Part shown: positions 4,260 through 37,143 of the stretch, piece by piece
How the letters are laid out: the number at the start of each line of letters is the position of its first letter
Position numbering within the stretch: position 1 is the stretch's first letter
From: Escherichia phage D108
Sequence record: NC_013594.1
Reading direction: 5' to 3' (one strand)
DNA: 37,235 bases
The notes under the pieces: generated by a model
What the model saw: the letters and a program-made list of their open reading frames with translations, nothing else
Databases searched by the model: none
Told to the model about the DNA's origin: nothing
Made by a program: the position numbers and the translations under genes

Positions 4260-4487
4260 ATGATGGCCCGAAATATAAAAATGGCAACGGATGCGCAGAA
4301 CTGGTTACAGGCGCGCGGGAGTCATGTAAATGAATCATATCTCGGCGTGGCGCGTCCGATTCTTGAAATCACTTACCCACCGGTGGAACTGGTAAAAAAC
4401 GCGGTCAGGATTATGGAGCATAAGTCCGGGGTGGCCCGTTCTGTATGGACGGCCCGTCTTAATGGTTGTCAGATTATCTGGAGATAA
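4260..4487 (+). CDS. Kil-like small early protein (75 aa), assigned by position after B
   Basis: Strong SD AAGGAGAAG before the ATG; first gene of the semi-essential region where Mu kil maps. Assignment is by synteny only. Confidence 0.5.
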
Positions 4488-4489
4488 CG

Positions 4490-4711
4490 ATGTGTATTAA
4501 AGCTGAAAAATATATTGAATGGGTTAAACACTGTCAGTGCCACGGGGTGCCGCTGACGACATATAAATGCCCCGGATGCGGTGAACAGATTATGACGCAA
4601 TGCTCACACGAAAAGGAAATTTGGGATTCCCTGACATGTTGTCCGTGGTGCAGCGCAGTTTTCTTTAAGCAGGTAAAAGGCGCGAAGGTAAAAGCCAGCG
4701 CAGTTATTTAG
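4490..4711 (+). CDS. Cys-rich zinc-ribbon-like small early protein (73 aa)
   Basis: ATG at 4490 directly after the preceding stop with GGAG upstream; CPGC...CPWC cysteine pairs. Confidence 0.6.
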   Translation: MCIKAEKYIEWVKHCQCHGVPLTTYKCPGCGEQIMTQCSHEKEIWDSLTCCPWCSAVFFKQVKGAKVKASAVI

Positions 4712-4731: not shown

Positions 4732-5001
4732 ATGGCAAAAGTAATCTTTGAATTTAACAATACAAGAAATATTGAGTTTCAGGAAAATGGAGGTTTTGCC
4801 GTAAATATGAATGTGCGACTGGAAGAATCCTCACCTGAGGACCAGACCGGGCCACATGATGTAATGGCAGGCATCATCAAGAGCATGGCTCCTGAAATCA
4901 TTAAAAAAGCGACCGAGGAGTTGTTGAAATCAGCCAGGGAGCTTGGGCTGGAAGCCGAGGGGGAATTATTCAGCTATAACCCGAATACAGCCAGACATTA
5001 A
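4732..5001 (+). CDS. Hypothetical early protein (89 aa)
   Basis: SD AAGGAGAAG upstream; tightly packed in the early operon. Confidence 0.6.
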   Translation: MAKVIFEFNNTRNIEFQENGGFAVNMNVRLEESSPEDQTGPHDVMAGIIKSMAPEIIKKATEELLKSARELGLEAEGELFSYNPNTARH

Positions 5002-10011: not shown

Positions 10012-10434
10012 ATGCAGCATGATTTATTTGAACACGATCCGGCAATTCGCCAGTTAATCGGACATATTGATAACATCCCTGCCCCGGAACTGGAATCACG
10101 CTGGCCCCGTTCGGTGGTTGATCTGATTGATGTTCTGGAAAACGAACTGAAACGCCAGAACGTCAGCAATCCCCGTGAGCTTGCCCGTAAACAGGCCGTT
10201 GCCCTGTCCTGTTTTCTGGGTGGGCGGCAGTTTTATATCCCCTGTGGCGATACTATCCTGACCGCGTTACGCGACGATTTGCTTTACTGCCAGTTCAATG
10301 GTCGTAACATGGAAGAACTGCGTCGCCAGTACCGCCTGTCCCAGCCGCAGATCTACCAGATTATTGCCCGCCAGAGAAAGCTGCATACACGGCGTCATCA
10401 GCCTGATCTGTTCTCACCTGAAAGCCCAAAATAA
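10012..10434 (+). CDS. C: C, late-gene transcription activator (140 aa)
   Basis: Mor/C family; size and position (before lys) match Mu C. Confidence 0.85.
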   Translation: MQHDLFEHDPAIRQLIGHIDNIPAPELESRWPRSVVDLIDVLENELKRQNVSNPRELARKQAVALSCFLGGRQFYIPCGDTILTALRDDLLYCQFNGRNMEELRRQYRLSQPQIYQIIARQRKLHTRRHQPDLFSPESPK

Positions 10435-31507: not shown

Positions 31508-33009
31508 TGTTTTATATTGATAACGACAGCGGCGTAACCGTCATGCCGCCCGTATCCGCCCAGCGTAGTGCTATCGTTCGCTGGTTTTCAGAAGGTGACG
31601 GGAATAATGTTATCACATGGCCCGGCATGGACTGGTTTAATATTGTTCAGGCGGAGTTATTAAACACGCTGGAAGAAGCCGGTATTCAACCGGATAAAAC
31701 AAAATTAAACCAGCTTGCACTGTCCATTAAAGCCATTATGAGCAATAACGCGCTGCTGATAAAAAATAACCTCAGCGAAATTAAAACTGCCGGGGCATCA
31801 GCACAGCGTACAGCACGTGAAAATCTGGATATCTATGATGCCAGCCTGAACAAAAAAGGACTCGTTCAGCTAACCAGTGCCACTGACAGCCCCAGTGAAA
31901 CGCTGGCAGCCACCGCAAAAGCGGTGAAAATTGCGATGGATAATGCCAATGCTCGTCTGGCAAAAGACCGGAACGGAGCAGATATTCCCAATAAGCCGCT
32001 GTTTATCCAAAACGTCGGTTTACAGGAAACGGTAAACAAGGCTGGTAACGCTGTTCAAAAGACAGGCGATACCTTGTCCGGTGGGCTTACTTTTGAAAAT
32101 GACTCAATCCTTGCCTGGATTCGAAATACTGACTGGGCGAAGATTGGATTTAAAAATGATGCCGATGGTGACACTGATTCATACATGTGGTTTGAAACAG
32201 GCGACAACGGCAATGAATATTTCAAATGGAGAAGCAAACGAGGCACCACAACAAAAGACCTGATGAATCTTAAATGGGATGCTTTGTATGTTCTTGTCAA
32301 TGCCATTGTAAACGGCGAAGTCATATCAAAATCAGCAAACGGCCTACGTATTGCTTATGGTAATTACGGATTCTTTATTCGTAATGATGGTTCAAATACA
32401 TACTTCATGTTGACAAACTCCGGTGACAACATGGGGACTTATAACGGATTAAGGCCATTATGGATTAATAACGCTACTGGCGCTGTTTCGATGGGGCGTG
32501 GCCTTAATGTTTCAGGGGAGACGCTTCAGACCGTTTGCTATAACAGCAGTAATGGTATGTGGATTCAGATGCGCGATAACAACGCTATCTTTGGGAAAAA
32601 TATAGTTAACACTGATAGCGCTCAGGCGTTGCTTCGCCAGAATCACGCTGACCGCAAGTTCATGATAGGTGGACTGGGGAACAAGCAATTTGGCATCTAC
32701 ATGATTAATAACTCAAGGACAGCCAATGGCACCGATGGTCAGGCGTACATGGACAATAACGGTAACTGGCTTTGCGGTGCGCAAATTATTCCCGGAAATT
32801 ATGGCAATTTTGACTCACGCTATGTGAGCGATGTCCGACTTGGCACACGTGTTGTTCAGACTATGCAAAAAGGCGTGATGTATGAGAAATCAGGTCATGC
32901 AATTACGGGGCTTGGCATTGTCGGTGAAGTTGATGGCGATGATCCGGCAGTATTCAGACCAATACAAAAATACATCAATGGCACATGGTATAACGTCGCA
33001 CAGGTGTAA
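31507..33009 (+). CDS. S: Tail fibre protein S (constant part Sc 31507-~32003 fused to variable part Sv), 500 aa
   Basis: gixL lies inside the ORF at 32004-32037; C-terminus ends RPIQKYINGTWYN, similar to the end of S' on the opposite strand. Confidence 0.85.
   Translation: MFYIDNDSGVTVMPPVSAQRSAIVRWFSEGDGNNVITWPGMDWFNIVQAELLNTLEEAGIQPDKTKLNQLALSIKAIMSNNALLIKNNLSEIKTAGASAQRTARENLDIYDASLNKKGLVQLTSATDSPSETLAATAKAVKIAMDNANARLAKDRNGADIPNKPLFIQNVGLQETVNKAGNAVQKTGDTLSGGLTFENDSILAWIRNTDWAKIGFKNDADGDTDSYMWFETGDNGNEYFKWRSKRGTTTKDLMNLKWDALYVLVNAIVNGEVISKSANGLRIAYGNYGFFIRNDGSNTYFMLTNSGDNMGTYNGLRPLWINNATGAVSMGRGLNVSGETLQTVCYNSSNGMWIQMRDNNAIFGKNIVNTDSAQALLRQNHADRKFMIGGLGNKQFGIYMINNSRTANGTDGQAYMDNNGNWLCGAQIIPGNYGNFDSRYVSDVRLGTRVVQTMQKGVMYEKSGHAITGLGIVGEVDGDDPAVFRPIQKYINGTWYNVAQV
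32004..32037. repeat. gixL, left 34-bp inverted repeat of the G segment
   Basis: gtttatccaaaacgtcggtttacaggaaacggtaaa is the reverse complement of 35043-35076 with 2 central mismatches. Confidence 0.9.
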
Positions 33010-35129: not shown

Positions 35130-35723
35130 GTGCTGATTGGCTATGTAAGGGTATCAACAAATGACCAGAATACAGACCTGCAACGAAACGCTCTTGTTTG
35201 TGCAGGATGTGAACAAATATTTGAAGATAAATTAAGCGGAACAAGGACAGACAGACCTGGATTAAAACGCGCGTTAAAGCGCCTTCAAAAAGGTGACACA
35301 CTGGTTGTCTGGAAACTGGATCGCCTCGGGCGAAGCATGAAACATCTGATTTCCCTCGTCGGGGAACTACGGGAGCGAGGGATTAATTTTCGCAGTCTTA
35401 CCGACAGCATAGACACATCTTCTCCAATGGGGCGTTTTTTCTTCCACGTTATGGGTGCCCTGGCTGAAATGGAACGAGAACTAATCATCGAGCGAACGAT
35501 GGCTGGACTTGCTGCCGCCAGAAATAAAGGCCGTATTGGTGGGCGACCACCTAAACTAACCAAAGCGGAATGGGAGCAGGCCGGGCGTTTATTAGCACAA
35601 GGAATCCCCCGCAAGCAGGTTGCATTGATCTACGATGTGGCCCTGTCAACTCTGTATAAAAAACACCCCGCGAAACGAACGCATATAGAAAACGACGATC
35701 GAATCAATCAAATCGATCGGTAA
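35130..35723 (+). CDS. gin: Gin DNA invertase, serine recombinase of the Hin/Gin/Cin family (197 aa)
   Basis: N-terminal catalytic domain (LIGYVRVSTNDQNTDLQ, active-site Ser), C-terminal HTH; adjacent to gixR. The recombinational enhancer is expected within its 5' coding part. Confidence 0.95.
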   Translation: MLIGYVRVSTNDQNTDLQRNALVCAGCEQIFEDKLSGTRTDRPGLKRALKRLQKGDTLVVWKLDRLGRSMKHLISLVGELRERGINFRSLTDSIDTSSPMGRFFFHVMGALAEMERELIIERTMAGLAAARNKGRIGGRPPKLTKAEWEQAGRLLAQGIPRKQVALIYDVALSTLYKKHPAKRTHIENDDRINQIDR

Positions 35724-35805
35724 TACAGATCGATTATGTCTCAATAACCACACTCAACCCATGATGTTTTTTAAGATAGTGGCGAATTGATGCAAAGGAG
35801 GTGAG
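35697..35805 (+). promoter_or_regulatory. mom operon control region: three clustered GATC (Dam) sites and C-dependent promoter
   Basis: GATC at 35697-35700, 35715-35718 and 35728-35731, spanning the gin stop; then the com SD AAGGAGGTGAG. Matches the Dam/OxyR-regulated Pmom arrangement known for Mu. Confidence 0.7.
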
Positions 35806-35994
35806 ATGAAATCAATTCGCTGTAAAAACTGCAACAAACTGTTATTTAAGGCGGATTCCTTTGATCACATTGAAATCAGGTGTCCGCGTTGCAAACGTCA
35901 CATCATAATGCTGAATGCCTGCGAGCATCCCACGGAGAAACATTGTGGGAAAAGAGAAAAAATCACGCATTCTGACGAAACCGTGCGTTATTGA
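35806..35994 (+). CDS. com: Com, zinc-finger translational activator of mom (62 aa)
   Basis: C-x2-C...C-x2-C zinc finger (CKNC...CPRC); overlaps the 5' end of mom. Confidence 0.9.
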
Positions 35995-36652
35995 GTATGA
36001 AGGCCAGATTGTTGGCTATGGTTCAAAGGAGCTGCGCGTTGAAACCATATCCTGCTGGCTGGCCCGCACAATTATTCAGACAAAGCACTATTCCCGCCGT
36101 TTTGTGAATAACTCTTACCTCCACCTGGGAGTATTCAGCGGACGCGATCTGGTTGGCGTTCTCCAGTGGGGATATGCCCTTAACCCCAACTCAGGTCGTC
36201 GTGTCGTGCTTGAAACGGATAACCGGGGCTATATGGAGTTGAACCGCATGTGGCTACACGACGACATGCCCCGCAACTCTGAATCACGGGCCATCAGTTA
36301 TGCACTGAAAACCATAAGGTTACTGTATCCGTCAGTGGAGTGGGTTCAGTCTTTTGCAGACGAACGCTGCGGACGTGCTGGCGTTGTGTATCAGGCGTCA
36401 AATTTTGATTTTATTGGCAGCCATGAAAGCACGTTCTACGAGCTGGATGGTGAGTGGTATCACGAGATAACGATGAACGCAATTAAGCGCGGTGGACAAC
36501 GAGGCATGTATTTACGGGCTAATAAAGAGCGTGCCGTGGTGCACAAATTTAATCAGTATCGCTACATCAGGTTCCTGAACAAGCGAGCAAGAAAGCGGCT
36601 AAATACCAAACTATTCAGGATTCAGCCATACCCAAAAAGCAGTTCTGATTAG
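35945..36652 (+). CDS. mom: Mom DNA modification protein (adenine modification, anti-restriction); start uncertain
   Basis: ORF overlapping the com 3' end. GTG at 35945 has GGAG 7-8 nt upstream; the first in-frame ATG (35915) lacks an SD. Body ...[18 protein letters not shown]... through the stop at 36652. Confidence 0.85.
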
Positions 36653-36696: not shown

Positions 36697-37143
36697 ATGA
36701 AAAAATCAAAATTGCTAATCAGTACCATCATCAGCCTATTCGTACTAACCGCCTCCTCAGTCAATCACGCTCAAGAAAAAGATTTTGATCCTGAAGTGGC
36801 TGCTGATGCAGTCTTAAGGTCCGCCGGGATAGATCCAGATAAGAGTGTTGCAAATAAAGCCCCTGCCTCTGGTTTTTGGACCTGCCACGGTATTCGTATG
36901 CATATGGGCGTTGATATGGGGTCATGGACAGACCTTGATACAGGTGAACTATACACTCAGATAGAAACAGGCCAAATTGACGAACAAGACAAGGATGAAA
37001 AGATTAAAGGGACTGATTATCTCTATGCTTTGACTAGAAATCCTGCGGTTATAAAGTATTTTATCGTTGATAAATCAGGAAAAAATCTTTATATCCGAGA
37101 TGATGTGAATATTTTTAAGACATATAAATGTAAACGAAACTGA
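36697..37143 (+). CDS. Cargo (moron) gene: secreted/periplasmic protein of unknown function with cleavable signal peptide (148 aa)
   Basis: Own SD (ACGGAG); signal peptide MKKSKLLISTIISLFVLTASSVNHA-QE; two Cys in the mature part; visibly lower GC and rare codons (CTA, ATA, TTA) versus neighbouring phage genes; sits between mom and the right-end sites. Confidence 0.7.
   Translation: MKKSKLLISTIISLFVLTASSVNHAQEKDFDPEVAADAVLRSAGIDPDKSVANKAPASGFWTCHGIRMHMGVDMGSWTDLDTGELYTQIETGQIDEQDKDEKIKGTDYLYALTRNPAVIKYFIVDKSGKNLYIRDDVNIFKTYKCKRN

Follow-up and report, generated by a model that had tools for sequence, protein, structure and literature searches.

The com-mom operon of Escherichia phage D108, a near-identical copy of the phage Mu anti-restriction module

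Does the right end of Escherichia phage D108 carry the com-mom operon known from phage Mu with all of its controls, and at which codon does translation of mom begin? Since the 1980s, this operon has served as a textbook example of how a toxic gene is controlled at several levels. The original prediction, made from the letters of the D108 sequence (NC_013594.1), recognized in positions 35697–36652 the known Mu Mom DNA-modification system, with transcriptional control by Dam and OxyR, translational activation by Com, and a non-canonical start codon of mom. All coordinates given below refer to the window, that is, the whole analysed stretch of 37,235 nucleotides.

Layout of the locus and its match to Mu

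On direct reading of the sequence, the GATC sites, the stop codon of gin, com and mom were all found exactly where they had been predicted. The locus comprises the following features:

35130–35723, + strand: gin, the G-segment invertase, 197 aa (Pfam Resolvase and HTH_7; PHROGs agrees)
35694–35739, strand not specified: Dam/OxyR control region with three GATC sites and OxyR-consensus matches
35734–35747, + strand: dyad TTAT-N6-ATAA, located where Mu has its C-activator site
35747–35777, + strand: core of the promoter Pmom, identical to Mu
35806–35994, + strand: com, 62 aa (PF10122, Zn_ribbon_Com)
35915–35928, + strand: Com-target RNA hairpin (predicted fold) with a CC(N)2-3GAG motif
35928–35950, + strand: translation-inhibition hairpin (predicted fold, −9.5 kcal/mol)
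35945–36652, + strand: mom, 235 aa from GTG (PF25680; match to PDB 8bv8)

The mom ORF, which ends with TAG at 36650–36652, is also open from an upstream ATG at 35915 (245 aa). As predicted for com, which by its PF10122 match encodes a zinc protein, the gene overlaps the 5′ end of mom; the overlap is 50 nt counted from the GTG and 80 nt counted from the ATG.

In a similarity search with the last 2.2 kb of the window, gin-com-mom was 96.6% identical to Mu, while the identity to Mu_3F6 (LR595867), PhiR68_1 (PV340575), and the Yersinia phages vB_YpM_3 and vB_YpM_23 was 98–99%; these D108-type phages differ from the D108 window by scattered point changes only. The Mu record (AF083977: Mu_52, com; Mu_53, mom; Pmom) lists gin, com, and mom in the same order at the right end, and shares with D108 the 50-nt com/mom overlap, the GTG start, the GGAG, the three GATC sites, and the hairpins. 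From the GATC cluster to ~300 nt inside mom, only three bases differ from Mu: the C site has two of them in its spacer, and the third is in the gin tail. Homology to Mu ends at ~36633, the beginning of the D108-type right end; the window itself ends with a Mu-type end, ...TTTTCGTGCGCCGCTTCA.

The difference in the gin tail has a visible consequence for gin. A T>C change at 35710 (AATTAA to AATCAA) removes the Mu stop, and D108 gin reads four extra codons (QIDR) through the second GATC site, yielding 197 aa compared to 193 aa in Mu. The gin stop thus lies between the second and third GATC sites in D108 and between the first and second in Mu.

The D108 com-mom locus is a near-identical copy of an already known, well-studied system, almost base for base, as had been recognized originally, and every element named in that prediction has its counterpart in Mu by sequence. 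Given this near-identity, the locus is almost certainly the late com-mom operon of a transposable phage of the Mu/D108 type, with the mechanism carried over from Mu; no observation contradicts this reading.

The Dam/OxyR region and the promoter Pmom

The three GATC sites (35697–35700, 35715–35718, and 35728–35731) span 35 bp with spacings of 18 and 13 bp. As predicted, they straddle the gin stop (TAA, 35721–35723) upstream of com, the first two being inside the 3′ end of gin. With two of three sites in coding sequence, the cluster could be a chance by-product of the gin 3′ end that has no regulatory role in D108. In the window, GATC is about two-fold under-represented (70 sites observed, ~144 expected from base composition), and nowhere else do three sites fall within 60 bp. 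Still, when 70 sites were placed at random, such a triple arose in ~10% of trials, and hence the cluster by itself is only weakly improbable. Its weight comes from the match to Mu, from the conservation of the spacing in diverged relatives, and from the OxyR-consensus matches.

We scanned the window with the OxyR consensus. The best matches, at four places, agreed with it at 13 of 20 specified positions, and two of them (35694–35730 and 35703–35739) sit on the GATC cluster. Another of the four, 4477–4513, overlaps a TTAT-N6-ATAA dyad at 4474–4487. The control region as a whole (35694–35739) differs from that of Mu by one base, the T>C change at 35710 in gin, and in the corresponding region of Mu, Dam and OxyR govern Pmom, with Fis also involved in the control circuit (PMC3378877).

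The 18+13 spacing recurs upstream of com or mom in loci L004, L008, and L037, with different spacer sequences. Other loci have spacings of 19+13 (L019), 31+13 (L007, L009, and L010), or 13+18 (L006). In the diverged Enterobacterales loci with the 18+13 geometry, the sequence upstream bears no resemblance to gin, which argues against a coding by-product, and viral contigs follow the same spacing pattern as the Enterobacterales loci. We consider it extremely unlikely that the three sites have no regulatory role, and regard the cluster as the putative Dam/OxyR switch of the operon.

Outside Enterobacterales, mom loci lack the GATC triple. In alpha- and delta-proteobacterial mom loci, upstream GATC sites are scattered at most, and no spaced triple was found; neither were clusters of GANTC (CcrM), for which we searched the alphaproteobacterial loci as a possible substitute for GATC.

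GATC triples also precede mom genes lacking com, at 2396–2430 in L006 (an Enterobacteriaceae MAG), 2418–2465 in L009, and 2424–2471 in L010 (both Symbiopectobacterium contigs). In these loci the sites, spaced 13/18 or 31/13, are only 21–111 nt before the mom start. Judging from these sequences, Dam-site control seems to persist there without Com.

The Mu promoter feature of AF083977 maps to 35731–35797, directly after the third GATC site. This region contains the hexamers ACCACA (35747–35752) and TAAGAT (35772–35777), separated by 19 bp that include a T6 run. We take the hexamers to be the −35 and −10 elements of Pmom, in line with AF083977 and secondary descriptions; likewise, the dyad at 35734–35747 is presumably the C-activator site, given the layout of Mu Pmom and the AF083977 promoter feature. 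Exact TTAT-N6-ATAA dyads are more frequent in the window than expected from shuffling (4 vs. 0.31). The three further ones, at 4474–4487, 4966–4979, and 32458–32471, were not linked to known late promoters.

All features of Mu Pmom that we looked for have candidates in the D108 sequence: the C site overlapping the −35 element, poor hexamers, the 19-bp T-run spacer, and a gene for the activator C (10012–10434, 140 aa, Mor family). Pmom of Mu is described as having poor hexamers, suboptimal spacing, a T stretch, and a dependence on C (PMC3378877), and D108 Pmom, to judge from its sequence, is a weak, activator-dependent promoter as well. A generic sigma-70 scan of the D108 sequence did not detect Pmom, which is expected for an activator-dependent promoter and is not counter-evidence. 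The control circuit also requires the phage activator C, beyond Dam, OxyR, and Com of the original prediction.

The dyad spacer reads GTCTCA in D108 and GCCCCA in Mu, and the two substitutions are private to D108 among four aligned phages. They could weaken activation via the C site, so that the module would be present in D108 in a functionally altered form. By contrast, the dyad half-sites, the −35 and −10 elements, and the T6 run are unchanged in the alignment with Mu. We return to this possibility below, as changes in Mom also bear on it.

As proposed for D108, transcription from the weak Pmom (35747–35777) would require the late activator C bound to the TTAT-N6-ATAA dyad. Host OxyR would bind 35694–35739 when the three GATC sites are unmethylated, blocking transcription, and methylation of these sites by Dam would prevent OxyR from binding.

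The start of mom and the mRNA hairpins

The bicistronic mRNA would yield Com first. Its gene is preceded by the ribosome-binding site AAGGAGG (35795–35801), and the protein is 100% identical to Mu Com. With an N-terminal CxxC...CxxC (CCCC) zinc ribbon, a disordered tail, a length of ~62 aa, and matches to PF10122 (E = 2.7e-9) and PHROG 13819 (E = 5e-45), it is a member of the Com family; a PDB sequence search with Com returned no match.

Folding of the RNA between 35912 and 35955 yielded two adjacent hairpins. The first one, the candidate Com target, has the stem AUGC/GCAU, in which the upstream ATG (35915) provides the 5′ arm, and the loop CUGCGA. It holds CCUGCGAG (35918–35925), which fits CC(N)2-3GAG, the motif selected by Com in SELEX (PMC6483171). 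By itself this hairpin is weak (−2.4 kcal/mol, z = −1.4). The second, blocking hairpin has the stem UCCCACGG/UUGUGGGA and a predicted energy of −9.5 kcal/mol (z = −2.6; 4 of 200 shuffles fold equally well), and pairs all three bases of the GUG (35945–35947) together with the first two G of the GGAG (35934–35937). The predicted arrangement, a CC(N)2-3GAG hairpin immediately 5′ of a start-sequestering hairpin, is that of a Com target. Both hairpins are identical to those of Mu, where Com activates mom translation and the GUG start is within the translation-inhibition stem (PMC6483171). In D108, the mom GUG and part of the GGAG would similarly be locked in the hairpin at 35928–35950, and Com, binding the small hairpin at 35915–35928 (CC-NNN-GAG), would open the blocking hairpin and allow initiation at GUG 35945.

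Comparison with relatives points to selection on the RNA. The island GAATGCC-NNN-GAGCATCCCAC...GTGGG is invariant in L004, L005, and L019, which are 81–84% identical in Mom, while the adjacent com codons diverge. The loop triplet has eight values, tgc, aaa, aca, tca, ttc, ctt, gca, and gtt, seven of them from 38 viral contigs fetched with the island pattern and the last one from L005; the loop of the blocking hairpin is likewise variable among viral contigs. Since the flanks of the island are invariant while the loops and com codons vary, the constraint acts on the RNA rather than on the tail of Com. No alignable relative has a change in the stems, and hence the support consists of conservation and loop variability, without covariation. 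Neither hairpin has a family in Rfam; the only match, IS102 (E = 0.17; 21.5 bits, with a gathering score of 46), was rejected as due to chance.

The original prediction favoured the GTG at 35945, inside com and preceded by GGAG (35934–35937), as the plausible start of mom. The competing possibility is initiation at the canonical ATG 35915, from which the frame is open, producing the 245-aa protein. A 2026 structural paper (PMC13219725) numbers Mu Mom from this ATG (241 aa), as follows from its residue offsets, and two close homologue clusters, P0002 and P0007, are called from the equivalent codon. However, ATG 35915 has no purine-rich ribosome-binding site (the upstream sequence is ...cataatgctga), and its conservation is explained without a start function, as it forms the 5′ arm (AUGC/GCAU) of the Com-target hairpin. 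In the Mu GenBank record AF083977, mom begins at this GTG and the GGAG is marked as its ribosome-binding site, and the Com literature (PMC6483171) uses GUG, too.

Homologues speak against the ATG in the same way. In L005 (Scandinavium) and L019 (Apirhabdus), both ~81–82% identical, the equivalent of the ATG is kept, but in-frame stops intervene between it and the GTG. The codon aligned with the GTG is ATG in L008, L037, and L021, and in L011 and L013 an ATG follows one codon later; all these loci have GGAG 7–9 nt upstream of the start. The N-termini of homologues cluster at the GTG position, the majority beginning at V11 or at most one codon away, and conservation starts with the SR motif just downstream. 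In addition, Mom minus its first 10 residues is still active and was crystallised in the truncated form (8bv8; PMC13219725), and the mass reported for purified recombinant Mom, 27,050 Da, is close to the 27,042 Da of the 231-aa form and far from the 28,146 Da of the 241-aa form.

Initiation at the ATG is thus very unlikely. The Mu annotation and the comparative sequence evidence agree on GTG 35945, which settles that mom should be annotated from this codon. The start is indeed non-canonical, although there is nothing special to D108 in this, as it is the classical assignment in Mu. Databases and recent papers use two numberings of Mom, 10 residues apart.

Mom, its family, and the downstream ORF

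Mom matches PF25680 over the complete profile (E = 2e-75, positions 1–202 of 202) and PHROG 1384, and PDB 8bv8 aligns to its residues 11–241 (E = 3e-157), with a gapless alignment in the HTH-like insertion (~175–209). The alignment with Mu bore out the predicted relationship: besides the unchanged Com, D108 Mom, ~98% identical to Mu Mom and sharing all key residues with it, has four substitutions (V133T, V198M, K235R, and V236I) and the four-residue C-terminal extension SSSD, ending in ...YPKSSSD. The residues R111, S124, D149, R151, H58, Y59, W48, Y159, and W181 are essential or important by mutagenesis (PMC13219725), and all nine are present in D108 Mom.

Mom is a GNAT that moves glycine from Gly-tRNAGly to the N6 of adenine in double-stranded DNA, and the product undergoes an on-base rearrangement to N6-carbamoylmethyl-adenine (PMC13219725). 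Given its near-identity to Mu Mom, the D108 protein probably has this activity. It would add glycine to adenine N6, leading to N6-carbamoylmethyl-adenine, and phage DNA would thereby be shielded from many restriction enzymes. For D108, we infer this enzymatic activity and all of the binding events described above from sequence.

The replacement of the Mom C-terminus from codon 242 onward is, together with the C-site spacer, the second change that could make the D108 module function differently, in this case by affecting the activity or specificity of the enzyme. Against this, the residues known to be essential are all conserved, C-termini in the family are naturally variable past the conserved YPK, and Mu_3F6 and PhiR68_1 have the same Mom C-terminus as D108. 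Taken with the unchanged promoter elements, these observations make a functional alteration very unlikely, and we retain the reading of a module working as in Mu.

At E ≤ 1e-5, Mom has at least 834 homologues. In other Proteobacteria the family has the same invariant residues as D108 (H58, Y59, R111, S124, D149, R151, and Y159). In about two-thirds of 80 genomic loci, mom directly follows, and usually overlaps, an ORF for a Com-like zinc ribbon; in these loci CC(N)2-3GAG motifs nearly always precede the start, in many cases two of them ~22 nt apart. Com is lacking in some lineages, in particular in the chromosomal copies of Yersinia and Serratia and in Sphingomonas. Other mom lineages, unlike D108, have ATG starts and hairpins that hide the ribosome-binding site instead of the start codon.

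One such case is seen in L008 (2485–2508) and L037 (Symbiopectobacterium and Pantoea persica), where mom has an ATG start and a hairpin GUCUCC...GGAGAC is predicted (−15.7 kcal/mol, z = −2.7). It is the ribosome-binding site, instead of the start codon, that would be sequestered: the logic of Mu with a different RNA solution. In alpha- and delta-proteobacterial com-mom loci (within L020–L083), paired CC(N)2-3GAG motifs ~22 nt apart are often located ~45–90 nt before the codon aligned with the GTG, for example at −81/−59, −84/−62, and −75/−53, echoing the bipartite SELEX motif of Com.

The mean predicted unpaired probability of the ribosome-binding site and start was 0.35 in loci with com and 0.47 in those without (Mann–Whitney p = 1.3e-4), in a comparison that uses heuristic start assignments, includes a few misclassified com-positive loci, and spans clades of different GC content and loci that are not phylogenetically independent. 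The association of com with a less accessible mom start region is suggestive only.

D108 also has an ORF of 148 aa (36697–37143, + strand) that is absent from Mu; it lies in the interval from mom to the right end, which in Mu measures only ~115 bp. It begins 44 nt after mom, has GGAG 8 nt upstream, and encodes a predicted Sec-type signal peptide (MKKSKLLISTIISLFVLTASSVNHA|QE). No Pfam family matches it, and its PHROG is 15648 (unknown function). Within the phage collection, only four D108-type Mu-like phages have it, at 99–100% identity; in PhiR68_1 it is annotated as ‘D108-specific protein’. Mu_3F6, PhiR68_1, and the Yersinia phages vB_YpM_3 and vB_YpM_23 share both the Mom C-terminus and this downstream ORF with D108.

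No terminator was predicted between mom and the 148-aa ORF, and therefore the ORF may be co-transcribed from Pmom. It may then be a third cistron under Dam/OxyR/C/Com control in D108-type phages; if so, its product could be an exported protein made together with the anti-restriction enzyme, and only in late lytic growth. As even com-less mom genes keep the GATC geometry, the Dam/OxyR switch could be a module independent of Com. The combined reading, in which D108-type phages have a third late cistron and the Dam/OxyR switch is a conserved module able to work without Com, is tentative, and we think it somewhat doubtful as a whole.

As a discovery, the D108 operon matters little, being nearly identical to the prototype. 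The practical value is in annotation, with GTG 35945 as the mom start and ATG 35915 as a part of an RNA hairpin. Modest leads for those studying how phage anti-restriction is regulated come from the conserved GATC spacing, from mom loci that lack com, and from the association of com with an occluded start.
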